A stretch of 63,961 bases of DNA, filler included, from Collodictyon triciliatum (taxonomy: Eukaryota): assembly GCA_043381765.1 (NCBI GenBank). It is 6 parts of 6 records of this genome, joined end to end, with 100 filler letters (N's around TTAATTAATTAA, not from the genome) between each part and the next. Parts side by side here need not be neighbours in the genome. Positions count along the whole stretch, not along the records: positions 43,145 to 57,417 come from JBHJMP010001846.1; 5 more parts are not named here. One strand, 5' to 3'. This document shows positions 3,734 through 58,165 of this stretch, piece by piece (positions within the stretch are counted from its first letter, which is position 1; every line of letters starts with the position of its first letter). A program made the translations under genes and the position numbers. The notes under the pieces were generated by a model. It had not been told where the DNA came from. It saw only the letters and a list, made by a program, of their open reading frames with translations, and made no database searches.

Positions 3734-4793
3734 ACCCCGGAACGACTTAACGGGGTCCTTGTTTCCATCTTTTGAATAAAAAAAATCATCTAATTACAAA
3801 TATATTTAGAAGGAAAGCGTCAAGTGGCTGTGAGAACGGGCGGGGGAAGGATATCGCACTCTCCAGTGACTGGTGTTGTGTGCGAGGCATCCTTGCCCAT
3901 TAAGCCTATGACACCCTAAGCGTGTCCTTGGGCAAGTGGGTCGTTCATCACCGCAGCGCCCTCTGGTTCCGTCTTCTCCTTTGCGCAGGGCCGACCCAGA
4001 TGTGTGTGTTAGAGAGATTTAGTCCACAAGTTGCGACGGCGAACTCTGGTCAAAGTGTTTTAGGCTCTATTGGAAAGTTTTAATTGCAAGAAATTTGCTG
4101 TGGGCGAAGTCATTAGGATGACTTTTTTTTTACAAGCTATCCTGCCGTGGCTCCGCCGTGTTCTTCTCCCGAGCTCATTTATAACACTAGTCACAGAGAG
4201 GCTGCAACACGGACGTGCTACCACCAAAGACAGGCATTGAGATACACTCGGCTTGAATTTTGTACATTGTGACTTCATGGGAAAATAAAGAGCGGTGTCA
4301 CTGAGGAATTTATTGCGTAGTGAGTTTAAACACACTTTTGGGTTAGTTGTCAAACGACCTTCAAAAATCCAGATATGGTATGATTCACTCCCTTGAATCT
4401 GGCAAAACAAAAAAAAGGGAGCTGAAAACGCAGTCATAATCACGCCAATATGAAAGAGTCTGCAATATAAAAATCAATCGGTGGCCGCCCAGCCTGCTGC
4501 ACACGAATCCGGTACTTCAAGCACCGCCACAAACAACTCGCTCAAACCGCAATAAAACTGCCTTGAATAAAGGGCCTTCGCTCTGCTTTTCGGTCGACAT
4601 GCTGCGGCGTCTTTTGCGTCCTGCTGCGCCCCATAGCCTGCTTGCGCGCCTCTCGTCTCCTCTCTCCACAGACGCACTTGCCAGAGGTAGAGGCCCTTCA
4701 TGTGGGTGAATACATCATAGAGAGGAGCAGATTGTCCTCATCATCGTACATTCTGTTCTGTCGTCCTTTTTGTGTGTGATTTTACAAACAATT

Positions 4794-4895
4794 AAACAAA
4801 CAAACAAACAAACAAACAAACAAACAAACAAACAAACAAACAAACAAACAAACAAACAAACAAACAAACAAACAAACAAACAAACAAACAAACAA
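4794..4895. repeat. (AAAC)n microsatellite
   Basis: Directly visible. Confidence 0.95.
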
Positions 4896-4949
4896 GGAAA
4901 TGAGAAAATAAATGAACAAAGAAAATTATAAACCCCAACATTCACGAAA

Positions 4950-10242: not shown

Positions 10243-13200
10243 CTATTCGTGCGGCTCTCGCTGCTCGCCCCATTCCCCATCCTGGTCGACGCGCAGTCCA
10301 AGAGCCCACCGTCTCGGCGGCAGGTCTCCTTTGTGTGCATCGTACCACCGTGATGCCGATAGCGCGCTGAACAGGCTCAGGTGAAAGACCAAGGAGATGA
10401 CGTCGGGTTGCCTGTCGGCTGTTCGAATCCCAACCATGACCGCAACTCCTGTGCAGAGCCAAACATTTTCATATCGTGCAGTGACTCTCTTATTCGATTC
10501 TTTGTTTCTTTGTTTCTTTGTTTCTTTGTTTCTTTGTTTCTTTGTTTCTTTGTTTCTTTGTTTCTTTGTTTCTTTGTTTCTTTGTTTCTTTGTTTCTTTG
10601 TTTCTTTGTTTCTTTGTTCAAACCAGCGTTGTGCAAATTGGGCCGGGGGTGGAAAGGTTTTGCGAATAAGGCAAACCTCGGTGTCGAATACCATCAAGAA
10701 CACAGGCCTTTCTATAGACAGAGTCAGCAAAGAAGAGTTCCGGGTCTTGTAAGAAAAAGATTCCAAACTCTTTGTCTGGGAGGCTATCGAATCTGAACTC
10801 TCCAATCTGCGGACATGACGACAATGTAAGGGGGATATGTGAGAGGCCGTATAGTACAAATGGTTGTGGGTCCAATAGATTCAAGCAACAAGTGCTAGAA
10901 CCGGCACGCCATCTTATTTAAATCTTACCAGTTCTACTAGCTTTCCATCCTTCCAGGCCATCAGATATTCTCCCTTGCGTGTGTACGTCCTCATCTTGAT
11001 ATCCTGGTTCAGTCCACGATTCATCGATAGAATGTCTTCTAAAGCCTGCTCTGCCTCGTGGAAGTCGCTACCCGATTCCTGTGCATTAATCTTACATATT
11101 CAAAAAAATTCGAAGCGCGATTATCTTGTTTAAATTAGTGTGGCTCGCACTCTTCTTCCTTAGGTCGACATACCTCGAAGGGAACCGCTAGTGCAAACCG
11201 AATTTTGTTAATGAGCTCTGGATTCATCCGCATCATCTACAAAATGAATCTTTGTTAAAAAAAAGAAAAAAGAAAGAAACTCGCAATGGTCTTGATCGAA
11301 AGATGAAGCGGTATTAAGTAGCATCGCCTCGATGTTTTCACCTAAAAGAAAAAGAAAAGTAGGAACCTTCAAAAATGTTGGCTTCGATACCAAATCTCCA
11401 CCAGAGAAAGCACGTTCCAATTTCGAAAGTATTTGACAAAGCTCATCTTCTCTGTTATATGTTCAACAGTTAAGATATTTCTGTTGAATTGTTTGCATGT
11501 TCTCATTCGCCGGCTCTAAAATTCCCTTCGTAAGGAAAGTTTAAGAAAATCATGGTACAACAACAAACAGCGATTGGGGAGAAAAAAATCAATCAGAGGG
11601 ATGTACTTACTCGCAGAGGCACATCAATATTCGAAAGGCATCAGAGTTACTCAAGTATTCTTTGTGATTCAAGTCCATCATGTCGAAGCAAATGTCACTG
11701 AGCTCAATTAGCGACCCATGCAAGACTTTCCCCTGCGTTTAAAATTTCATGAGGACGTAGATATTCATTACACTGAATTATTGATTAGAGTGAATCTGTC
11801 AACGCAGGGGTTAAGACGTACCAGAAAAGCACAAAACTGTTCGATAGTGACTTTCAAGTTTTCGGACCCAACCATTTTGTCATACTCTTTAGATTCTGGC
11901 TTCTCGTAGAGAACACTGGGGAGACCGCCAATTCCATGGCTTCCTGCTTTGTTAGTCACGTTTGCTGAATCTATTATCTCTTCCAGTAGGTGATTTCTAT
12001 CCTTTGGGGACTTTGCTAAATTTTCTTCAACGTCCTGATTTTTTTTTGTTTCCTTCAGTATTGCTCGATTCACTGAAGCTTTGTGTACATAGTTTAAAAT
12101 TGATAAATTATAATCTCGTATCACTTTCATACTTACGAGTCGTGAAAGTAGGTAGAACATTGTCTTTGAAAAGTAGATGTCATCGACAAGATAGATTTCC
12201 TCTACGTATTGAGTAAATGATTCGTAGCTCAGATGTGACACAAATTCCTACGTTCCAACGGCCTCATGAGAATAGAATCACAAATAGCAAGCTTAACAGT
12301 GGAATCAGAACGAAGATGAAGAAGAAAAAGGGACAGTCTCTAATATATTCCAAAGAGAGAATGATGCAAAAATTAACTGAGTAGGGGAGAAGTAACTCAC
12401 TTTATCATTCGAGTTACTAGTCCCTGATGTTTTTTCTTTGTTTTCGTGATTCCCAAAATTGCGGAAATGATGAATAACTTTGACTGCTTCCTCAAAGTTA
12501 CCTGAATATGGGTAAAATTGTTCGGTAAGGTGCGGGCTATGGGGTGGTCTGTTCGATGTTAAGATTATAATGTGCATATGTGACAACAAACATTTGGATA
12601 GGCAGCAGAGGTAGTCGGCTTTTTCTCGAATGTGCTTGGGGTGTGCTTTCTTGGATGCTTCGGTCTCCTGATAGCAATCATTTTTAGTGATTATTATACT
12701 GAGGGAGAAGTATTTGATGGTGATTGGCTCTGGTGAGGAAACAAATTACTTATTAGCGCGCACAATCTATGTTAACAACATTTACATACATATATTCAGC
12801 GATCCAAAAACCAACCGTATCTTCACTTTCATTCCCATTGTTACTTTCCCAGTGGTGATTGCTTTTGGTTTTTTTATTTTTCTATTTGATTCCGATCATA
12901 CATGAATTAATTTGGTCATAGCTGGAAAACAAAGTTAGAGGAGCCTCCCATTGGAAGGAATGAAAAATAAAAGAAAAAATAATCCGTCCAGGTTCGATGT
13001 GATAGCGTGAACTTTTGGTTTTCTTTTTTATCATCAAATGAATTTCAGGTACGCAACTCTACGTTGTCTAAGATATTAAAATGTACCTTTGGTGACTTTT
13101 TCTGTCTGTTATATTTTGTGGGAGATTTTCTCGGAAGAGATAACTTTTGCGACGGAGAGCCCGCCCGACTGGGAGATTGGGAAAGCTTCCTGGAATATGA

Positions 13201-14993: not shown

Positions 14994-15664
14994 CTAGGAG
15001 CGCTCCATTACCATTTCAACTCTGTATAGTTTGGCTAGCAGATATGTGGCATCACTGGCTAGCTTCTCCTCTGTAAAGGTTATAGGCAACTCGAGGAACT
15101 TCTCACGGTGGGCTGATAAACTCTTCAGTATGATGCGAATTGTGTAATGATTGATTTCATCCCCATCACTGTAGTACACCTTGTGTCCGCGGTGAATACT
15201 TTGGACATCCTGTGCTGGTATGGTTACTGGTGGTTTTTTCCTCCATGTGACGATAATCTAAAACCGGTATCAGAGTAAAGATTCTGGATTAGAGTCTGAA
15301 ATGATTAAAAGCAAGAAATTTTGTATTTCATAATATAGAGCGACGTAGGAACGGAACCTGTGATGGGTTGAATTGATAATCAGCTGTTGTCATTATTCTC
15401 CTGTAAACTCGAATGGGCCCTATGAATGACATCACAATTGCTATTATGACCGCAGGAAGGGCATACGACAGAGTCTTTGCTCCTACTGTCGCACATACAG
15501 TAATCAACAATGCATCCAGAATCACGACAGCTATGATTGTCCTTTTCAGATTGTTCCCGGTCCTATTAAACGAAAAGGGGTTAGGATAAATTCTGCATTA
15601 TTTAGAAGGACCTAATACCCGTTAAACCGCCTATTTCCCTAAAAAGAAAGAAAGAAAGAAAGAG

Positions 15665-15763
<99 letters not shown>

Positions 15764-16294
15764 GTTGTGTGTACTTGCATCCGACTTTATCTTTTGCTAT
15801 TTATATGTGCCTACAATGACTCACATTTTACAATATCCTGAGTCGTTTGAGAAGAAAAAATTGCTGTTGATGAACGCATAATCCACCATCGTAGCTTCTT
15901 GGGAGCCATTTCCCAATGGCACCATTTGAATGGCATGTCCTCCAGACTGTGGGACATAAGGCTGCTGCACAAAAGGCTGCTGAGCATAAGGCTGGTTGAC
16001 ATAAGGTTGCTGAGCATAAGGCTGTGGAATGTAAGGCTGGTTTCCTTGGGCTGGGTTGCTTTGTGTCTGGAGAAGAGATAGTTCACCCATCAGTCGATTG
16101 CGAGTTTCAAAGTCTCCGTTGAAAAGAGGCGGGGCAATGTCAACCAAGCTAAGCAGGACGAGCCGTGGTCCTGTCACATAATTGCGCTGAAAGTCCATTA
16201 CAACAGACTCGCTGAATCCCTTGTCTCGCAACCACTGAGCCACATGGTCGCCTGTCCAGTATTGCAGCGGAATGGAACCATAGCTCGTATTCAT
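14994..16294 (-). CDS. SAM-domain protein with QPY repeats and two transmembrane helices
   Basis: N-terminal WTGDHVAQWLRDKGFSESVVMDFQRNYVTGPRLVLLSLVDI..RNRLMGELSLL matches the SAM pattern. It is followed by (QQPY) repeats, hydrophobic TIIAVVILDALLITVCATV and YALPAVIIAIVMSFIGPI, and a C-terminal exon ending MERS*. Confidence 0.65.
15645..15762. repeat. (AAAG)n intronic microsatellite
   Basis: Directly visible. Confidence 0.95.
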
Positions 16295-17473: not shown

Positions 17474-20400
17474 ATGGTAACCTGAAGCATCATTTCCCAC
17501 GTTTTCTCTCTCTGCCTTGTATTTTGTATTTTATATTTTGTATTTTGTTTGTTTGTTTGTTTGTTTGTTTGTTTGTTTGTTTGTTTGTTTGTTTGTTTGT
17601 TTGTTTGTTTGTTTGTTTGTTTGTTTGTTTGTTTGTTTGTTTGTTTGGTTCACCTTTTTATTTTTATTTTCTTTTCCCTTTCTTTTCAAAGTTTGCCTCG
17701 TAATCGGCTGCTTCTTTTCATGCACACCGATCAACTGCGAAGCAACCTTGATCCGGATCGTTCACCCTTGCAACCTCGCACTCTAAAAAGAAGTATTTGT
17801 ATTTATATGATCCTTACCTTCAAAGGCCGAAGCTGCTACCTCACCTGCCCCAAAGTCCAAAAAGGCCGACGCTCTCCCCACACCCGAATATGTCGAACAT
17901 CGCCTTCGCCTTTGGGAAGAGTTTAAAGGGCGTCGCCAATCTGAAGCCCGTAACTATTCTTTTATCTTTCGCTCTGTCCTGCACAAAATATTCTGTCACA
18001 CTCCTTCTCTTGCTCTCATTTCCCCACTGTATATATACATATATCTATTTCGAAGCTTTTTCTCATTAATCGCTGCAACCTTCACAGAGCTCGAGTCAAA
18101 GCCGATCAAAATCACTCTGGACGAAGGCCGCGTTGTTGACGGGGAATCATGGAAAACACGTCCGTTTGATCTCGCAAAGGGAATCTCTGAAGAAGTCTCA
18201 AAGAACGCTGTGATCGCCAAGGTTACTACGCTCTCATGTTATATCTACGTTGTCGCCCTGCTCCTCTGATTTTAAAACCGGATATACAAGAGAAAAAAAA
18301 AGCAGAAAAGAAAGAATGAAAACGATTAAACTTGTTGTTTCTCATGAGACCCACACCAAATACCTTCCTCAATAACACATCGGGCAGGTCAACGGTGTGA
18401 AATGGGACCTTTTCCGTCCTTTGGAGGCTGATTGCAAGGTCGAGTTTGTCTTCTTCGAGTCTGACGAAGGCAAAGAGGTCTTTTGGCATTCCAGCTCTCA
18501 CATCCTTGGACAAGCCCTTGAAGTCTTGTACGGCGCGCATCTATGCAAAGGCCCGCCGGTGGAGGATGGGTTCTACTACGATGTTGTTGCTGACAAGGCC
18601 ATTTCTCAGGACTGCTACGAGGCCATTGAAAAGGCTGCAAACAAGATTGTTAAGGACTCACAAGCCTTTGAGCGTCTGGAAATGACAAAGGAGGAGGCAT
18701 TGGAAATGTTCAAGGTTTGGGTTATTCTACTTCGTATAGTTCCTGTACACAGTTGCTGAATCTTTCTAGGTTAGTTCCAGGAATTTGTTCTATGCCAAGC
18801 TTGAGAGCTACACATTGACGGTAGTTGAATAGGCCAATTTTTTCATATTGTTGTATTTGCTTCAACACAGCACAACCACTTCAAAGTTGAGATTATCTCA
18901 AAGAAGGTCCCCAATGGCGAGCGATGCACGGCTTATCGCTGTGGTCCTCTGATTGATTTGTGCCGCGGACCACATTTGCCCAGCACTGCTCGCGTGAAGG
19001 CATTCGGAGTCACCAAAAACTCCAGCGCATATTGGGAAGGCGATTCATCGAAAGAATCCCTCCAGCGTATTTACGGTGTCTCGTTCCCGTCAAAAGAGCA
19101 ATACAAAGAATACAAAGAGCTGGTTGCAGAGGCTGCCAAGCGCGACCATCGCGTTGTTGGAAAGGTTTCAGTTTTTTTTTTTCAAGTGTATGCATATGTT
19201 CTTTCCCACCTTATCTAAACTATCACGCTTAAGTGCATTACCAGTGACAAGCTCTGTTAGATGAAGACTGATCAGGTCTTTTCAGAACAGTTAGTTTGAA
19301 CGCCTCTGACAGAGCATACGTTCCATAGCACCAAGAACTCTTCTTCTTCCACACGCTCAGCCCTGGAAGCTGCTTCTTTTTGCCCCACGGAGCTCGCATC
19401 TACAACAAGCTTGTTGAATTTATCCGCGTAAGAAGCTGTCTTATCGACATAGAACACGAAAGTAAAAATTACAGTGTGCAATAATCAATCCATGTCATGA
19501 CTTTGCCAGACACACCTGAATGTATCCTTTCATGCCTTAGAAAGAGTATTGGAGGCGTGGATTCACGGAAGTTGTTACCCCAAATATATATAACATCGAT
19601 TTGTGGAAGACCTCTGGGCACTGGCAAAACTACCAGGTTGGTCTGCTTTCTTATGCGGATGACAAATCCTTTACATGTATATTCATTTCGTAAAATCTCT
19701 CACAAACTTAGAGTATAACGAATCGACTTTTATCTCATCCACTAGGAGCACATGTTTCACTTTGAGGTGGAGAAGCAAACATTTGCCTTGAAGCCCATGA
19801 ATTGCCCAGGTGAGAGTAGTTCACAATCTTATCATCGATTATTTTTTTTAAAAATAGAAATAAACCCATTTTATTCATCAGATTATGTAAGTGTATAAAA
19901 TTTACGAGCTTCGCTCTTTATCAGGCCATTGCCTCATGTTCGACCACCGACCCCGCTCGTACCGTGAACTTCCTATCCGCATGGCTGACTTTGGAGTTCT
20001 TCACCGCAATGAGTACAGCGGCGCTCTGACTGGCCTCACTCGCGTGCGCCGCTTCCAACAGGACGATGCTCACATTTTCTGTGCTCCTCACCAGGTAAAC
20101 TTTACATTTTGGCCAACTTTCTGTTCTGTCAAAACTATTCCAGCCTTATATATTTTAGGGAAACCTTCTAATTTTTTTAAAATAAAAATAAAAATGGAAT
20201 TCCACGTGACAGATCACTGAGGAAATTCAAAACTGCCTTGCCTTTCTCAACTCTGTCTACGGAATCTTTGGATTCACATTCGAGCTGCATCTATCTACCA
20301 GACCCGAAAAGTACCTTGGGGAATTGGACCAATGGGACAAAGCTGAAAAGGTACTGCGATGTAAAAGAAATTGTACTCCATTTGTCAAGAACAATAAATA

Positions 20401-21465
20401 AACAAGACATACACCCACACTGACCCATTCGTTCATTCGTTCATATTCTATCTATATATTTAGAAAATAATCATGGCCATATCTTTGATAAGTTATTTCT
20501 CCTCAGGCCTTGGCAGATGCTCTGAACGCCTTCGGCCAAAAGTGGATCATCAATCCTGGAGATGGGGCGTTCTACGGTCCAAAAATCGACATCAAAATCT
20601 TTGATGCTCTCAAGAGACGACACCAGTGCGCCACCATCCAACTGGACTTCCAGCTTCCAATCCGCTTCAACCTCACCGTGAGTCGAACTTCTTACCCTCG
20701 CTCACCCACGCCCAGGAAAAGAACCAAATGCCACCAACACACCCTAACCCAGACATTATGCCATCAAAATATATCCGCACCAAATGCATGTGACCTTCTC
20801 GCCTTTCTCACACTCACTCATCTACCAGTACGTTCCAAGTGACGAAGAAAAAACCACGGAGGAGAAAATCTATCGCCCAGTCATTATCCATCGTGCCATC
20901 CTCGGTTCTGTTGAGCGCATGATTGCCATTCTCACAGAGCACACGGGCGGCAAATGGTACTCCTCCACGAATACGGCACACATAATCTTTTGCGTTTACT
21001 CTCCTCCTCCAAAGAAAAATTAAAATTGGTGGGTTTCTTACATTTTGTGCATTACAACACCCATGAATCGTGATGCGAAGGCCCTTCTGGATTTCTCCTC
21101 GCCAGTGCATCGTCGTTTCTGTCGCAGACACGCATAACGAATACGCGCGCAGGGTTTGTTTCTACCCAATTAGCATCGAAAACAAAAGACGGCGCTAGTA
21201 TTAACATGGGCATTTCGGTGCGCAGGTTGAGAAGATGATTCATGACGCCGGGTATTTTGTGGACTCTGACTTGAGCGACCGCACCATCTCCAAGAAGGTT
21301 CGCGAGGCACAAGTTGCGCAGTACAACTACATTCTGGTCGTTGGACAGGAGGAAATCACATCCGAGACAGTCAACATCCGCACGCGCGATAACGTCGTCC
21401 ACGGCAAGGTCGAGCTGAGCAAGCTGATTCACGAGCTCGATGCCCTCCGAGACTCTTTCAAGTAA
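17474..21465 (+). CDS. TARS1: Cytosolic-type threonyl-tRNA synthetase (multi-exon)
   Basis: [18 protein letters not shown] domain [11 protein letters not shown]; editing motifs [10 protein letters not shown] and [74 protein letters not shown]; anticodon-binding domain [13 protein letters not shown]. Stop at 21463-21465. Confidence 0.97.
17543..17647. repeat. (TTTG)n microsatellite in TARS intron 1
   Basis: Directly visible. Confidence 0.95.
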
Positions 21466-22187: not shown

Positions 22188-23646
22188 ATGGGTAAGTCAC
22201 CATGCACATATAGTAATAGGTAATCACCGAGGTTGTCTGTGGGAGGTGTGAGGGTGGTGACTATGTTGGACGGACTAGATCGCTATTAGCCTCAGGTTGT
22301 GAAGAGATGCGTTGAAAAAAACACACCAGATCAAACTCCCGATATCAGAGTATCGTGCCTATCGAGGCAGCTCAGAATCAAAAAATTTCCATAATTATGA
22401 CTCGATCCTGGCAACCGCTTCAGAATATGATCAGGCGCACCTGTCTGTACGACAAAGCAAGCTACGAAACCAGATTGCCAGATCAAACTGCAAACCTGCC
22501 CGATCAGCCCAAGCGCCCCACCCATTTCACAGCCACCACCCCCCAGCTCTACAGACAACTCAGGCGATGTGACGGAAACAACCCCTTCCTGCTCCCCCAC
22601 TAAGTCGATCTCATCACACAGGTGCCTACAAATACCTTGAAGAACTCTGGAAGAAGAAACAGAGCGATGTCCTTCGCTTCCTCCTCCGCGTCCGTGCCTG
22701 GGAATACCGGTTAGCCTCCCCTTCCCGACAACCCACCCGAAGAAAAGAGAAACAGGAACACAAACACACATAATCATCCCCACCCCAAAAAACCTGTGGC
22801 CCTGACCAACCTCTTCACCACGCAACACAGCCAACTCCCCGTCATCCACCGCGCCTCGCGCCCCTCCCGCCCGGACAAAGCTCGCCGCCTGGGCTACAAG
22901 GCCAAGCAGGGCTACGTCATCTTCCGCGTCCGCGTTCGCCGTGGTAACCGCAAGCGCACCTACCCCAAGGGTATTGCCTACGGTAAGCCCAAGGGTGCCG
23001 GTATCAACCAGCTGAAGTTCCAGCGCAGCCTTCGCAGTGTTGCCGAGGAGCGTGTTGGCCGCCGCTGCGGAAACCTCCGTGTCCTCAACTCGTACTGGAT
23101 CAACGAGGTTTCTTACTCCCAACGATCGAGCAACACATCCTACCCCACCACACATTTAAACAACCAACGACACAATTACCTGCTCCCTTCCTTCGCTGTT
23201 CTGCCGCGTGTCTAGACAATTAGGACGAACACTCACAACCGCCTATCCAACAGGACGCCACCTACAAATACTTCGAAGTCATTCTGGTCGACCCCAGCCA
23301 CAAGGCCATCCGCCGCGATCCCCGCATCAACTGGATTGCCAAGTCCGTCATGAAGGTAAACTTCTCTCCGTTGCGTCCTATCACCATGAAAGCCCCACAC
23401 CCCGCATTTCGCTTTTCCTTTTGCTTCATTGGCTTCCCTAAGAACACATCCACCCTGGATCCTCGTCCTCTTCCTCACTCGTTCGCTCAAACAACATCAC
23501 AGCACCGTGAACTCCGCGGCCTCACCTCTGCTGGACGCGAGAATCGCGGACTCCACGGAAAGGGACACCGCTTCAACAAGGCCCGCCCATCCCGCCGCGC
23601 CACCTGGAAGCGCAACAACGTCCTTTCTCTCCGCCGCTACCGATAA
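22188..23646 (+). CDS. RPL15: 60S ribosomal protein L15 (eL15), 5 coding exons
   Basis: [84 protein letters not shown]..[11 protein letters not shown]..LSLRRYR*. Confidence 0.98.
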
Positions 23647-50700: not shown

Positions 50701-53700
50701 GCTCCCTATTCAATTGCATTATAAAAATACAAAGTGTAATGGATTGAAATGATGCCTTTATTCCATACTAATTGAACTACTGGCATTTATTTATTAGAAT
50801 AATAAAAGAAAACTTACTCAAATATTTCCTCATCTATTTTCTTTGAGTAAGCCAGCTTATGGCTCAAATACACTTCAATGACATTCTTTAGAATCCCATC
50901 CATATTATCCTTCAGATTATCAATAGAATAATTTCCAAGCCATTTTTTAAAAAAAATATATCAGTGGATATGGTAAAGAATGCAACTATATTCTATGTTT
51001 ACATCAATGAACGGTTAAAATTATTCAGAATATCTACTTCACTGAGAACTTCGATGTTATATTCTACTAAGTCAAGAATAATATTGTTCACGTATGGATC
51101 TGATATCTGAGCTGAGAGAAAAGAATATTGAGGTTATCATCCGTTTTATCTCGATCGTCGAAAGGAGCGAGCGTGAGTAATGGACTTTTTGAAAAACTCA
51201 CGCATTTGACATATGGCGTTGACAATAATATGTGCTTCATCATCTGAAACCACGCTTTGGTGGAGAAGATGGCAGGCAGAGATGATTCCTATCATTTTAT
51301 ATGATAATAACATTTATTTAACTCATATAGTGAATGGTTCAACGCAATTAAAAAAATGAAACCTGAACGCAACGAATCCATTTGGGATGAGAATAACTTT
51401 TTTTGAATATAAATCATAAAGGAATGTTGAAGATTGCTCTCCGGCCTAGTAAAGCAACACACTGCAGTATAACCAGCAAGAATTATGAAGGGTGATGAGA
51501 AAACTGAAGACACGATGAATAATTTTGGTCCAATTTCTTCATATTATATGCCTCATATTTTCCTACCCGAAAATACATGAAAAAGTCTGTGAAGGAGAGA
51601 AATCTGCAAACCATCTACATAATGTAATGTTTCTTCTAGTATATGCCTATGAAAAAAAAGGTTTGACACGATTTCATTTTTATTTGTCTATCAAATGGCG
51701 TGATAAGAAATTGCACGAGGGAGATGAATATCTATTTTTTGGAAACGAATAACGATGAATTGGTAACGCTTACACGCAATCAGCAAGCTGCTCAGTATGG
51801 GACTTGCATATTCTCAAAAGACACATGGATGCGGAAACTGCACTGCATACAAACTTTCGACACTGATCTACTTCTTTTGTTGTCCAAGCACGCTCCAGGT
51901 TTCTTTGATGATTTTCAGAACATGAACATATGCATCAGGCATACAAACTTGGATGAATTCTTTTGTGTGTTTTTAAAAGGGCATGAAGCTAACCTTTCTT
52001 CACTTGACGGACAGTTCGTTATATGAGACAACAATGTTGACAAAATCTTTTTTAAAAAAAAAAAGAACAATAATTTAATAATAATACTGAATTGGCACCG
52101 TAACTAAAAGAACAAACTATATCTAGGGTGTGCATCTATTGAAGAAGAAATCGAGAGAGAGAAAAAAACAACCATATGTCTTGTCTCTGGATAATAGACG
52201 AATATGACATCCATCATGATGACAGGGAGATCTGAGTTCCCTTTCGAAAGAGATATTCGATCCAGAAATTGGCTAGCAAACTGAACGCAAGTGTCATTTC
52301 GGAACTCGGATTCAAGATATAACTGTGTTCCTAGTCTTTGTGTTTGTTGAAATTTTGAATTCGGCAATGGGATAGCGCAAATGTAATTGATATGAAACTT
52401 GACATTTTCAACATAGCTTTGCCTGACCACCAACATCACTGTTGCAAAAGTTAGAATTCAAGTATTGAAATAAATGTACGTACTGGATGGCTTTATGATT
52501 TAGTAAATCGTACTGAAGAGCTCTTACCAACACCTGCGTTACTAATTTCCTTTCTATTTTTTTTATAAAAAAAAAACATATAGAAAATTGTGAGATTATA
52601 CTACTGATTGGTCCGCAAAATATCTATTTTGAATGAACAGCCATATTAAATGTACATATCTTTGTTTCGTATGCATGTACCTCTTGTCCTTGAATACAGG
52701 ACCATCACAACTGCAAAGTCCATAGGGATCCAACCAGAATACCTGAGAAAAAATGGTGTAATATTAGTGAGAAATGGTAAAATGTAAAAAAAAAAAAAAA
52801 ATTATCAAGTGTACAAGAACTATTAGTATTAGCAATTAATATGCTTGGTTACGTACCTTTGAAGACTTTGGTAAAAGGATTGAACTAATGCGCCCAAGGA
52901 GATGGGGAAAAAATTGATAAATAAACAGGCATGTGTATCAATGCGGTAGGTAATCGTAAATTCTCTATATCAGTTTTTACCTGCTGAATTGTTTGACCGA
53001 AATGATGAACAAATGACTTCAAAAATCAGTGGATTTGAATCCTAGTATGACAGAAATTGTAACTCAAGTAAGAGAGTTTAGTATTTGAAAATATAACTAT
53101 ACCAAATTCGCTTTTTCAATATGCCTCCGAATAAAGTCGATTGTGTTTGGATTAGCCTCTATACAAGAAATAATGGTAAAAAAAAATTAATCAAAAGGCG
53201 ACGTTTAAAATATCCAACCAACATCATGGTTTGATTAAATTTCAAATAATATTAACTGCTTCTCAGTGTTTTCAGAAGGCACGATACTAGAGCTGGTAAA
53301 TCTGATTCGTTAACCACATCAATCGATCCCTGGGTAAGAAGAAGCAAGAAAAAGAAGAGAAAAAGAGGCACACGAACGAAATTTTTAACCAATAGATAGT
53401 GTAAAATATAGTCATCTTTGGAATGAAATTCCATAATTATCAAGATTAAGAACAAATGAGCAATTTAATTTTTCGAAACAATTAACTCCCGAATACCTGG
53501 ATCAAACTCATCACACGGTTCTTGGAAAAAAATTAGAAAAAATCAGAAAAAAAATCGAGTATGATTGAGTTAAAATGAAACACGTTTTACAACTAACAGG
53601 GTTATTCGCCCTTCAATTTGTAAACATTTCGGTCGAAATATATATCTTTGGTACACTCCAGTTGGACTCATTTAAAAGAGATGAATAAGAACCTCTAGTC

Positions 53701-56700
53701 GGGTGGGGAGTGAAAGTTCAGACAGGCACCCAACGACAGGGACAATGAGACTACGGTCTCTCTCGATGATTCCCTCGAGTATTCTGTGGGCTTTGGTTAT
53801 CTACGAGCCAGTTAGGCTGAGAGTAAAGAAGGGGAGACATGTACTCATGGATTGGAGTTAGAAATAAAACCGATATAAGGACATTAGTAATTATAATACC
53901 TCATTCTCTGGTGATATTTGCATAAAGAATGGAACATGGGGGATGAACACATCAGGCCGGCTAGAACATTCGAGGAGTTCCAAGAACTATGCACACAAGG
54001 GTGTTTCATGTAAAGAGTCAGTGAAGGATAGACTTGTGTGGCGCATACAGCAAACAAAGTATGGCCTCTTTCTTACTGTTTGGGATATCCGGGGGTGATA
54101 TGCGAAATGGACGCAAAGCAGCCTCACAAGCGTGTTTACTTCATCCATATCGGAGTCGATCTCTGACTGAAGTCGAACAAGTATTGCACATGCCACGTCC
54201 ACCTGAGCCATGAGGACAGGAAAAGACACCAGGATATAGCAAGGGCGTTTTCAGATTAAGAAAGGAAAAGGAAAAGGAAAAGGAAAAGGAAAAGGAAAAG
54301 TAAAAGTAAAAAAAAAAAGAAGATCAGACAAGACAGAAGACAAAAGACAAAAGGAAATGAAAAGTACATGCGTCTCTGCGCTCTCGAGTAGCGGCACACA
54401 CAACTCTGCAACCACGCCGAAGCCTTCCGTCAGAATCCAGTCTGTGGAGACGCTCATTCCTTCACTGCCTGAGCAACAGAGAAAGGTTCAAGTCTGCTGT
54501 GCATACCTCGTGCCGTCTTGACATGGCACAGCAGCCTCCAGGAAACTCATTTAAAAATCGGTTATGTTTTATTCATGTTTTATTTACTAGAGGCAGTATA
54601 CCACGGAAAGATTGGTAAGCCTGGTTCGCTAGTACCCAAGGTCTCACCACATTTTTCAAAAAAGATTGCGTAGTGGTGAACGCTGCCAGGAAAGACCCGA
54701 CAGCCTGTTTTTTAGAGGAAGGTGTATGCATATTTTGAAGGATTAAAAGAACTTTGTTGAGTATATTCTTAGCGCTGTTTAAGTCCCTTGTCAAGAATGC
54801 ACTTTGTTTGCTTTCTGAGCGATTGCATTCTTTACATATGAGACATCTATACACACTTTTTTGAATTTCCTTTCGGTTTCACATATTCCAGTTCTTTTTC
54901 GCAGTTACAGCACATCTTGGAGGTTCTAAATTTATTTACACTCACTGATATCAAAACGTTTGAATAGTATTTTTCGTAATCCTCTTCTGATTGTTGGCTT
55001 AAAATGTTTCATCGGAGATTTTCTGCTCCAGTCTCCATACACCAGTACAACATCCTTGCCAAATGTCTTTTCGATTCGGACCATAAACAACTGTTCACTT
55101 TTTGTATTAAGATACTGTCTTCATCTCATCTTTCGAAAAGTGATTTGTTCGTAAAATCTGGAAAATTCTATCTGGTATATTGATTTCATGGATACATATT
55201 TTCGGAATTGTTCATAATCGGCCGTGCATGAATTATGTTTACTCAGTCCTGTCTCTATATCGATTAAAGATACTCTTGATGTATCAAACTGCTGATTTTC
55301 TTCTTAAGTCCTGAGACCAAAAGAAACAGCACTCTGTAAATCTGTTTTCATCTATATCCCTGAATTATTGTACTTTTTTCTTTTTTTTCTCGCACAAGTA
55401 TTTTGTGATTTTTAAGAGATTTGTTATCGTGTCTTCTTTGGTGTGCCGTGTAAAGTAATTTCTTACCTGTCTCATCCACCATGTAAACAAAATTACACTT
55501 GCATGAGTCCACTACAACTATTTTTTTTTCGCTAATAAAGATAACTGCTCTTCGGAGAGTTCATGTATAAAGAAACATATTTGGGGTTTTTTGATTTATT
55601 TGTAATTTGAATTTGAAATACCTTTCTTTTCAAACAATAATGACACCGCCAAGCCGTCCGTTTGTATCATGTATTTAAAATTGTAGTCTCTTCGATGAAA
55701 GACCCTCTTCTTCATTTCAAAGAACTTATACCATAGTTTCTCTTTGCATCCTGATATGTTCTTCAGTAATGATATTTTCCAGACAATACTAATAGATCTA
55801 TCAAACATGCAGTATCTAGAGTAAAATGACATGGTATATTGTTAGTTCTTATAGGAATTCGTTGAAACTTTTGGTTCCAATGTGCTCAAAAATGGGATTC
55901 ATGTAAATCAGACATGGTGCGCACTTCTTTGGATTGACTTTGATATCATAATCGATACCATTTACAATATCGCTGGGAATGATATGATGCAAATGCGTTG
56001 TAGCCCATCCTTTATATTGTTCCAGTATTTCGAGATTATTGAAGATGACCTTTTTTTAACTTTCGTATCTCTGCCTTTTTAATAGCTTCCGTAATATTCC
56101 CATCTATAGGAACTGTTTGATTTATAAAGCGCAGTAACCTCTTTACAAAATGCTCCCTAATGTTATTATGATAAGCTGTTAACATTTACTTCGCCAAGTA
56201 CTGTAATACATGAGACAGCCTAACCAACGGAAAGCGATCTTCTCGGGACAAAAGGAATCGAAAATCATTGAGATAAAAAGTCATCATGTCTTTACTCATA
56301 TCTGGTTTTTTAATCATGCGGATCTATCTTGTGAAACTATTCCGACTGTCTTTAAAGTGAACAAAAAAAAAAACTTTCATTTCATCGATTGTTGGGAGTT
56401 GTGATTTCAATATGTGACATCTTGCAAACAGATGAATGCCGGTAATCAAATTATGACACAATAAAACCGTATCGTTGATTTTGCCATAATCATCCGCATT
56501 CTTTACAATCGACTTTAGAGATGTTTTCAGATTTCGATAGTCTGGGTTTACAGACTTTAGATTCTCAGACTCAAGACGTTTTCTTTTCTTCATCTGAAAA
56601 TCTTTGTTTTACTTTTTCCTTTAGAAAACTACCGAGTTTTGAATTTTTATAAAACTTTAGTCAATCAGTCAATTTAATAAATAATTTTAAAAATAACTGC

Positions 56701-56889
56701 ATAAAATAAATTATGTAAAACTAGGCATCTACCGAGACTCTCAAAATGTGCGCGTTGTTGCAAACAGACACACAAAGTTTTTTTTATAAGTGATTTGAAA
56801 CAAAACGCTGAGAGCTGATTCGGCGAGTTCGTAAGGACAGCGGTATTGCCATTGCGACTGAAAGTCAACATATCGGCCCCAAACAACAT
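44709..56889 (-). CDS. FANCD2: Divergent Fanconi anemia group D2 protein homolog (many exons; first inferred intron interrupted by a mobile element)
   Basis: Colinear blocks resemble FANCD2 as I recall it: LTFSRNGNTAVLTNSPNQLSAFLEAAV, NTLVRLLCVHFAYHPRI, IIERDRSLIVPVVGCLSELSL, SIDVVNESDLPALVSCLLKT, IPMDFAVVMVLYS and QHSFMIYIQKKLFSS..GIISA (cf. HLVIRKQLSS..GIIGA). Acidic C-terminus; stop at 44709-44711. Further upstream exons are possible. Confidence 0.66.
54567..54704 (-). ncRNA. Candidate Fanzor omegaRNA (three-stem scaffold plus a flank-derived guide of about 20 nt)
   Basis: On the - strand, just after the Fanzor C-terminus: stem 1 GCTGTCGGG/CCTGGCAGC (54682-54704), stem 2 TCACCAC/GTGGTGA (54644-54679), stem 3 CTAG..AGGC..TACCA/TGGTA..GCCT-CTAG (54587-54632). 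The position matches TnpB/Fanzor omegaRNAs. Confidence 0.55.
54587..56793 (-). mobile_element. Non-autonomous Helitron-like element carrying Fanzor1 (2207 bp)
   Basis: 5' end A|TCACTTATAAAAAAAACTTTGTGTGTCTGTTTG. 3' subterminal hairpin TACCA..TGGTA, 8 nt, then CTAG|T. No TIRs and no Rep/Hel domain. Excision restores a 54-nt GT..AG intron and the host reading frame. Confidence 0.62.
54705..56593 (-). pseudogene. Fanzor1 (eukaryotic TnpB-like RNA-guided endonuclease), disrupted by frameshifts and stops; original stop position uncertain
   Basis: Ordered motifs: NLS MKKRKR, YRNLKTSLKSI, LQYLAK*MLTAYHNNIREHF, FQRIPIRTNNIPCHFTLDT, FKYMIQTDGLAVSLLF, RuvC-I IVVVDSCK, YTAHQRR, FRKMR*RQYLNTKSE, FGKDVVLVYGDWS, PTIRRGLRK, VN(K)FRTSKMCCNC, CKEC, RuvC-III TRDLNSAKNI. 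Confidence 0.92.
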
Positions 56890-57312
56890 GATTACTGCCG
56901 CGAGTTTTGACAGTATGCTTTTTGAAATGCATGTTTGGTGGCAGGTTTACAGAGTGGGTTCTGTCTGGGTCAAAGCAAGGGCTTGTTTGCAATTTTTGAA
57001 TTTTTAAGCGATAATATTACATAAATGAAAATAAAATATAAATTGATTACAGGAATAGAACGAGATTATTGGGTATTTTTTTAACCTTACTATATACTAA
57101 TAATACTACTATATTATTCAAGTTGTTTCTTGGATTCATCAAATTTCCTGCTTTTGTCAATCAAGATTTAATTCGATGGTTGTCTGTGCAATAAATTGTT
57201 ATCTGCAGGTACACTTTCGTTGTATGAAAAGTTTGTGCCTTGAAAGGGGTAAAGCCAAGTTCGTCACAACCTTTGTAATTAAGTTTATCAATTTACAGGC
57301 TGAATGAGACCG

Positions 57313-57417
57313 AAGAGAAAGGAAAGAGAAAGGAAAGAGAAAGGAAAGAGAAAGGAAAGAGAAAGGAAAGAGAAAGGAAAGAGAAAGGAAAGAGAAAGGA
57401 AAGAGAAAGGAAAGAGA
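57313..57417. repeat. 11-bp tandem repeat (GAAAGGAAAGA)n at scaffold end
   Basis: Directly visible. Confidence 0.9.
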
Positions 57418-57517
57418 NNNNNNNNNNNNNNNNNNNNNNNNNNNNNNNNNNNNNNNNNNNNTTAATTAATTAANNNNNNNNNNNNNNNNNNNNNNNNNNN
57501 NNNNNNNNNNNNNNNNN
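57418..57517. other. Artificial scaffold-joining spacer
   Basis: 44 N + TTAATTAATTAA + 44 N. Confidence 0.97.
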
Positions 57518-57584
57518 TGCTGGCTTTTCTTGTAGGACTGCTGGGCCTGAGGTGTGTGAAACACAATGAACAAAGCGTTTGTTT

Positions 57585-58052
57585 CGTCTTGTTTTTTGTC
57601 TTGTTTTTTGTCTTGTTTTTTGTCTTGTTTTTTGTCTTGTTTTTTGTCTTGTTTTTTGTCTTGTTTTTTGTCTTGTTTTTTGTCTTGTTTTTTGTCTTGT
57701 TTTTTTTTCTTGTTTTGTTTGTTTTGTTTTTGTTTTTGTTTTTGTTTTTGTTTTTTTTTTTTGTTTTGTTTGTTTTTGTTTTTGTTTTTTGTTTTTTGTT
57801 TTTTGTTCTTTCGTTTTGTTTTTGTTTTTGTTTCTTTGTTTTTGCTTTTGCTTTTGTTTTATCGCTTTTTGTTTGTTTGTTTTTTTTGTCTTGGTTTTTC
57901 TGTTTGTTTTGTTTGTTTTTTTGTTTTAGTTTGGTATGTTGTTTTTGTTTGTTTTTTTGTCTTGGGTTTGTCTTTTGTTTTTGTTTTTGTTTTTTGTTTT
58001 TGTTTTTGTTTTTTGGTTTTGTTTTTTTGTTTTTGTTTTTTTGGTTTTTTTT

Positions 58053-58145
<93 letters not shown>

Positions 58146-58165
58146 TTTTTTTTTTGTTTTTTTTT
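57585..58165. repeat. (GTCTTGTTTTTT)n followed by a T/G low-complexity tract and poly-T
   Basis: Directly visible; the long F/K-rich ORFs here come from this tract. Confidence 0.9.

Follow-up and report, generated by a model that had tools for sequence, protein, structure and literature searches.

A decayed copy of a repeated Fanzor1-bearing element in a Collodictyon triciliatum assembly and the question of its carrier

What kind of mobile element brought a Fanzor1-like gene into the DNA of Collodictyon triciliatum, and does that gene still encode a nuclease? The question is raised by a broken reading frame on the minus strand of a 63,961-nucleotide stretch of assembly GCA_043381765.1 (hereafter the window, meaning that stretch at its full length), which an earlier note had taken for an RNA-guided nuclease system, borne by a Helitron and lying inside FANCD2. 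In the analysis presented here, the locus is very probably a single decayed member of a DNA transposon family that is present in many copies and bears Fanzor1 as cargo, with a carrier that is best inferred to be of the Tc1/mariner type.

A Fanzor1 pseudogene

Between positions 56608 and 54573 on the minus strand, the list of stop-to-stop open reading frames (ORFs) contains a series of short frames whose translations are TnpB/Fanzor-like and carry the motifs MKKRKR (a basic N-terminus), QTDG, VVVDSC, VYGDWS, TSKMCCNC, RCLICKEC, and TRDLNSAKNI. The frame opens with an ATG at 56593-56591, and its last residue that aligns to the closest intact relative, P0005 (634 amino acids), lies at 54696, which gives a pseudogene at 54696-56593 (minus strand). 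P0005 is the best full-length HMMER match (E 5.8e-20), and its residues 2-610 are colinear with the minus strand of the window from 56587 to 54696, in six high-scoring segment pairs that occupy three frames (tblastn, summed E 1.2e-80). When 67 full-length relatives were compared with the window by tblastn, every one of the 311 segment pairs fell within 54000-57500. Among PDB sequences, P0005 has three matches, and all three are Fanzor1 proteins: 8gkh (E 9e-37, residues 14-607), 9cf0 (7e-34), and 9cer (7e-16). Because P0005 matches only Fanzor1 among solved structures, the assignment of the window gene as a TnpB-derived Fanzor1 on a mobile repeat is, as a reading of sequence, secure, and the fragmented but near full-length Fanzor1 frame of the earlier note is upheld.

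Searches were also made with single pieces of the broken frame. The 124-residue piece P0002 has four PDB matches, the top two being the Parasitella Fanzor1 9cf0 (E 1.2e-4) and the Spizellomyces Fanzor1 8gkh (E 0.065), and the C-terminal piece has three (E 1.7-2.7), with no Fanzor among them. None of the eight frame pieces reached the Pfam cut-off, the sole relevant hint being PF07282 (E 0.036). The N-terminal 191 amino acids, with stops read as X, were searched exhaustively with HMMER against 1.84 billion representatives, which gave 135 matches at E<=1e-3, of which 21 reached E<=1e-10. Identity exceeded 52% in just two of the matches, P0003 (66%) and P0004 (75%), both of them fragments of 137-139 amino acids. 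A word-indexed homology search for longer proteins with P0002 gave 44 candidates, none at E<=1e-3.

The active-site residues can be placed by reference to P0005, in which D372, E530, and D581 are invariant across an alignment of 22 relatives (A1). The RuvC-I aspartate (D372; 55507..55509, minus strand) and the RuvC-III aspartate of the RD motif (D581; 54783..54785, minus strand) are kept, as is, in translation, a CCNC ... C..C..C zinc finger (54825..54912, minus strand), which corresponds to the weak PF07282 match. The Fanzor motif given by Bao and Jurka in 2013 (PMC3627910, excerpts), D ... [TS][TS]xx-C4 zinc finger ... RD, is found here as D372, TSKMCCNC ... RCLICKEC, and D581. The available excerpts of PMC10530073 describe a rearranged RuvC site in Fanzors, with Gly or Pro at the canonical RuvC-II glutamate and a conserved alternative glutamate downstream that is used in its place. 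In the window copy the GDWS of this site is kept, and the codon for the alternative glutamate (E530, present in 22/22 relatives; 54931..54933, minus strand) now specifies lysine, which is read as the decay of a Fanzor1 family member rather than as non-membership. The features that the earlier note had listed (MKKRKR, the TDG motif, RuvC regions, and the CCNC..CKEC zinc finger) were thus all recovered, including the RuvC-I Asp, the GDWS of RuvC-II, and the RD of RuvC-III.

Similar comparisons were made with the solved Fanzor1 nucleases, SpuFz1 (8gkh), PpFz1 (9cf0, Parasitella), and GtFz1 (9cer, Guillardia). P0005 aligns with SpuFz1 over its whole length and shares with these nucleases the RuvC Asp, the GDW of RuvC-II, the alternative Glu, the zinc finger, and the RD motif. 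The window copy, in contrast, is set apart from them by its pseudogene state, by the loss of the Glu, and by its low identity.

The reading path through the gene (minus strand) runs 56593-56039, 56031-55879, 55867-55779, 55778-55599, 55536-55384, 55270-54953, 54948-54862, and 54860-54696, with seven frame changes when counted by coordinate. Three in-frame stops lie along it on the same strand: a TAG at 56324..56326 (X95 in translation), a TAA at 56186..56188 (X141), and a TGA at 55121..55123 (X61), where relatives have Trp. Because of the seven frame changes, the three stops, and the Lys at E530, the window copy is judged from its translation to be a dead pseudogene that would supply no working nuclease, and it is not a working RNA-guided system.

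The repeat family and its better-preserved copies

Eleven public sequencing runs were listed, in which sampled words were found at 22% (X1), 10% (X2), and at most 8% (all others). Runs X1-X4 were aligned to 53600-57280 at >=80% likeness and tallied in bins 123 bases wide. X1 is possibly the sample behind the window assembly and so lends no independent support. To the left of 54584 there are no contigs from X2, and those of X3 and X4 span small parts only; such blanks were not counted as evidence. At this threshold, 503 contigs from X1 and 454 from X2 match, in likeness classes from <90% to >99%. The contig depth, a sum that is not equal to copy number, is 73-400 (X1) and 58-432 (X2) in every bin of 54584-57280, as compared with 0-4 on the left flank in X1, where it steps from 0.4-4 to 142 in the bin starting at 54584. 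These data show a repeat family common to two differently labelled organisms. Identical pieces also occur in lake and freshwater metagenome runs from two studies, as 151-nt contigs over 54348-54498 and 54518-54668 in X3 and as a 226-nt contig over 54820-55045 in X4.

From the depth profile, the repeated element copy extends at least over 54587..57280 (minus strand), the left limit being approximate and the right limit being the end of the aligned stretch. The non-coding region upstream of Fanzor1 (56594..57280, minus strand) belongs to the same repeat unit; contigs bridge 56504-56923 and 56657-56981 in X1 and 56477-56836, 56486-56845, and 56593-56978 in X2. Within this region, a 178-bp stretch (56630..56807) that is present here is missing from some copies, in which 56629 is joined to 56808 (X1) or 56628 to 56807 (X2). 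Summed depth peaks farther upstream in the non-coding part, at 56921-57166 (341-349 in X1, 397-432 in X2), where many variable internal joints are seen; conceivably, the peak may reflect short derivatives that share that part alone. A motif from 57203-57227 of the repeat, sought as an exact pattern in metagenome contigs, gave no matches. By direct reading of the sequence, a microsatellite followed by an N gap with linker occupies 57306..57518, a place where the element may have lost its true upstream boundary.

The damage to the Fanzor1 frame is largely private to the window copy, because other contigs read sense codons at two of its stops and differ from it at four of its frame breaks. At 56188, a G in place of A gives a sense codon in 16/16 contigs of X1 and 10/10 of X2, and at 55121 a C does so in 7/7 and 6/6, respectively. 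One-base length differences relative to the window copy are found at 54950, 55596, 55774, and 55869, which are four of the seven frame-change sites, in 3-5 contigs per run (X1 and X2). Better-preserved copies of the family therefore probably exist.

Relatives, element ends, and the carrier

Relatives were collected with a six-protein alignment (A2), which retrieved 393 in metagenome contigs (80 loci kept) and 317 in IMG/VR (79 kept). At all 80 kept metagenome loci, one tblastn segment spans most of the query and gives no hint of introns, and many of these loci reside on large AT-rich contigs of up to 276 kb (GC 0.19-0.36). Of the IMG/VR loci kept, 27/79 are on contigs named GVMAG, which we take to denote a giant-virus metagenome-assembled genome; two loci, L002 and L081, share one such contig of 254,533 bp.

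A strong inverted-repeat pair (E<=1e-5) surrounds Fanzor1 at 48 of the 80 metagenome loci. A (T)TTACACC terminus, with TA^CACC tips (the caret marking the element boundary) and arms of 26-57 bp, is common to 45 of these 48, the other three being unrelated distant repeats. The remaining loci have weak pairs only (13), none (16), or too little flank (3). In these terminal inverted repeat (TIR) elements, which measure 2.06-4.9 kb, the right TIR ends 45-148 bp past the matched part of Fanzor1 and the left TIR lies ~140 to 2900 bp upstream of the gene. L003 is flanked by a 2-bp duplication (tc), and the right-end motif recurs at L004, L005, and L007, whose contigs are too short to reach the left end. 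Nine longer elements possess an opposite-strand ORF of 337-346 amino acids at the left end, of which truncated forms persist in several others, and all three such ORFs tested contain DDE_3 and helix-turn-helix (HTH) domains (E 1e-12 to 6e-16). The transposase ORF is full in L003 and truncated in L001, both of them 3.3-kb TIR elements, and it is also full in L002, which is 88% identical to P0005 and lies on the 254-kb GVMAG contig.

Additional cargo is found beside Fanzor1 in the TA^CACC elements, namely N6/N4 and D12 DNA methylases, DUF559/DUF4379 zinc-finger nuclease-like proteins, and a CoiA_N/DUF5710 protein; examples on giant-virus-like contigs are L014:5894-7219, L017:4266-5327, L042:8694-9842, L038:8266-9522, and L008:5832-7481. 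L068 and L070, on contigs of higher GC (0.39), differ from the other loci: their Fanzor1 lies between the arms of an imperfect inverted repeat of 54 bp, ~1.5 kb from the upstream arm and ~1.8 kb from the downstream one, and this repeat is unlike the TTACACC ends.

In a FastTree analysis of 73 rows, the window read-through (with X at the breaks) groups with L001, L003, L005, L007, and P0091 with an SH-like support of 98, and its highest identity within the tree set is 41%, to L003. The nearest relatives resemble the elements described in the excerpts of PMC3627910 in having TIRs, TA-type ends, a DDE_3/IS630-like transposase or none, and methylase or nuclease cargo. The Fanzor1-bearing Tc/mariner elements named there are PGv-1 from Phaeocystis globosa virus, PUl-1 from Pythium, and PUl-4, also from Pythium, which has Fanzor alone. 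As far as those excerpts describe them, the window element is like these three in that its gene is a Fanzor1, no transposase is present in the window copy, and TA stands at the supported junction; it differs in that its terminus and upstream region are unrelated in sequence and no TIRs were found in the window.

The supported junction is the one at the left end. That end plausibly lies near 54587, where the repeat depth steps up, but the exact base is not fixed, because the depth bins are 123 bases wide. On the plus strand the junction is TA^CTAG, with the TA at 54585-54586. The CTAG end proposed at 54587 in the earlier note therefore stands as to its approximate place and not as to its exact base or its meaning: what was written there as CTAG^T can be read just as well as a TA target site with the terminus of an element next to it. 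The Fanzor1 gene ends a few tens of bases from this junction, as it does in the relatives. Because the nearest relatives are TA^CACC TIR elements and TA stands at the window junction, the carrier may have been a Tc1/mariner (IS630-like, DDE_3) TIR element inserting at TA, a reading by analogy whose chances are put at roughly even. No transposase was found in the window, and any past movement would for that reason have required one acting in trans.

The 3′ end of the gene and the terminal non-coding stretch beyond it (54587..54730, minus strand) occupy the place where, by analogy with the relatives, the omega RNA scaffold would be expected. These last 144 nt fold as RNA into a structure of -37.9 kcal/mol with two hairpins (z -1.89; 8 of 200 shuffles fold as well). 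The two solid hairpins predicted in this way are suggestive only of a guide RNA scaffold. Among the relatives, a conserved 3′ structure overlaps the gene end and the right TIR, with 11 predicted pairs of which 8 show compensatory changes (RNAalifold), and it contains an optional hairpin that covaries (GTAGG/CCTAC, GTTGT/ACAAC, GGCGT/ACGCC). This RNA-like scaffold with its optional covarying insert is seen at L009:11764-11905 and at 42 other loci (alignment A5); at L053 a 29-nt insert lies inside the right TIR. A GTCT...CACCAC/GTGGTG...AGACC layout at the 3′ end of the window copy, which looks relative-like by eye, was rejected, as the covariance model of the relatives (R1) gives it no score.

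Several observations make it less safe to extend the carrier type of these elements to the window copy. The relatives are 30-50% identical to the window protein, and Fanzor1 genes are described as moving between transposon superfamilies (PMC3627910, excerpts), so that carrier type is not safely transferable by homology. The placement of the window copy and P0091 in the quick FastTree carries a long-branch warning. The terminal letters of the window copy are unlike the TTACACC tips, its upstream 700 bp have no detectable similarity to the relatives, and nucleotide BLAST of 54400-57420 against the 80 related loci gave short coding matches only (66-78%), with nothing outside coding sequence. In tblastn comparisons with the window, the 31 transposase and cargo ORFs of the relatives reached a best E of 0.23; for their 279 small upstream ORFs, comparison with the window gave nothing significant. 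Model R1 has 28 matches in the whole window (E 0.67-10), all elsewhere and low-complexity-like, with none at E<=10 in 54540-54800; when that stretch was searched alone, the best score was 2.6 bits. An inverted partner of the left terminus (54587-54615) was found nowhere in the window, although the upstream end may lie in the N gap, which makes this a failure to find rather than proof of absence. The lack of a TIR and a transposase, as stated in the earlier note, is thus confirmed for the window itself.

Some of the same observations fit carriage by another TIR or DNA transposon superfamily that is known to capture Fanzor1 (hAT, CMC/EnSpm, Sola, IS4-like, or MuDR), which we regard as possible but doubtful. 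The excerpts of PMC10530073 associate Fanzor1 with many superfamilies, hAT most often, and both the dissimilar terminus and the unrelated upstream region would be expected of such a carrier. However, TA stands at the junction, the other end of the copy being missing, and wherever the ends can be seen in the clade of the window protein, they are those of TA^CACC TIR elements.

Much less probable is a non-autonomous Helitron at 54587-56793, with a 5′-TC end and a hairpin-CTAG-3′ end, inserted between A and T and mobilized by RepHel in trans. On the minus strand, A^TC is indeed found at 56793 and CTAG^T at 54587, the repeat depth begins in the bin from 54584, the window contains no TIR, and Helitron2-borne Fanzor1 families (CRe-1, 2, 3 / CrFNuc) are described from Chlamydomonas reinhardtii (PMC3627910 and PMC10530073, excerpts). 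At least seven contigs from two runs nevertheless pass 56793 unbroken, among them the five bridging contigs given above and, from X2, 56778-57068 and 56781-57096, and the repeat cover continues to 57280, where the aligned stretch ends, or beyond. The proposed 5′ end also falls within the 178-bp optional stretch, and A^TC at 56793 is a chance trinucleotide inside the element. Beside the CTAG, the terminal 74 nt folded as DNA reach -6.1 kcal/mol (z -0.24), with 68 of 200 shuffles at least as stable, and no inverted repeat was found within 54590-54650, the 60 nt at that end; the hairpin reported there thus failed to materialize. The junction reads TA^CTAG just as well, TIRs are present in every nearest relative with visible ends, and the true upstream end of the window copy is beyond recovery from the window. 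With the proposed 5′ end internal, no 3′ hairpin, and TA at the junction, the window copy is unlikely to have had a Helitron carrier.

The comparison with the Chlamydomonas elements is one of descriptions rather than of sequences. As the excerpts of the two papers describe them, CRe-1, 2, 3 / CrFNuc are like the window element in being non-autonomous, multi-copy, and Fanzor1-only in a eukaryotic genome, and they have asymmetric terminal inverted repeats and a hairpin at each end, insert after TTTT, and bear genes with introns. For the window element, by contrast, no hairpin was found, the proposed 5′ end is internal, and the gene is colinear with those of intronless relatives.

An origin of the stretch in a giant-virus fragment that became integrated, in place of a transposon family resident in the host, is hardly credible: relatives abound on giant-virus-like contigs (the IMG/VR and GVMAG counts given above), and the excerpts of Bao and Jurka (PMC3627910) propose a viral origin for HMa-1 in a Hydra contig, but hundreds of diverged contigs per run, 80-99% alike, fit amplification in cellular genomes, host genes with introns are present in the window, nothing viral was noticed next to the element, and no close relative of the window family was found in IMG/VR with the queries P0002 and P0004.

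Genomic setting and meaning of the family

The DNA of the window is nuclear and eukaryotic, and its host genes are split by introns; they include those for threonyl-tRNA synthetase (18829-20839, plus strand), with exons matching tRNA_SAD (PF07973, E 1e-11) and tRNA-synt_2b (PF00587, E 1e-5), and for RPL15e (22715-23643, plus strand; PF00827), with two exons (E 9e-43 and 1e-24). The placement inside FANCD2 found no support: none of 146 ORFs (>=55 amino acids, 36-64 kb) matches the FancD2 Pfam families, from which small or diverged exons could escape, ten ORFs around the element match no Pfam family, and three ORFs have no match among PDB sequences. N gaps are present at 57419-57518 and near 14.3, 28.7, 43.1, and 60.5-61.2 kb; the first carries an all-frame stop linker, TTAATTAATTAA, at 57463-57474, and translations beside several gaps carry a linker that reads like it. 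Because the gaps carry this linker, the stretch is taken to be stitched from contigs, and the sequence right of 57518 therefore need not adjoin the Fanzor1 element. Unusually many long microsatellites with 4-11-bp units occur in the window, often beside gaps (4784-4933, 10437-10680, 15625-15770, 17517-17695, 57560-58160).

The class of Fanzor1 system, its transposon association, and its link to viruses are already in print, from 2013 and 2023. The family in the window appears to be new, in a comparison whose scope did not extend to the family sequences of PMC3627910. In an intact member, as general knowledge of Fanzor1 would suggest, transcription at the 3′ end of the element would yield a guide RNA; with this RNA bound, the protein would cut guide-matched DNA next to a short target-adjacent motif (TAM). 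We tentatively suggest, as a possibility that we would not favor, that the family is a recently active, host-amplified offshoot of a giant-virus mariner-Fanzor1 lineage, with copies that number in the hundreds, a part of them still intact, in two or more freshwater eukaryotes; the sense codons found elsewhere at two of the three stops and the one-base differences at four of the seven breaks lend it support. If true, the Fanzor1 that the family encodes would be an uncharacterised one that has a guide RNA and TAM of its own, and the family would document passage from virus to host and a subsequent burst.

As compact RNA-guided cutters of DNA from eukaryotes, Fanzor1 nucleases attract interest for genome editing, and how they pass from giant viruses to hosts or back is still an open matter. 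To these the locus adds a diverged, abundant Fanzor1 family in a eukaryote, with DNA that is also present in lake and freshwater metagenomes, and its value is as a pointer to a family worth mining for intact members rather than as a new mechanism.

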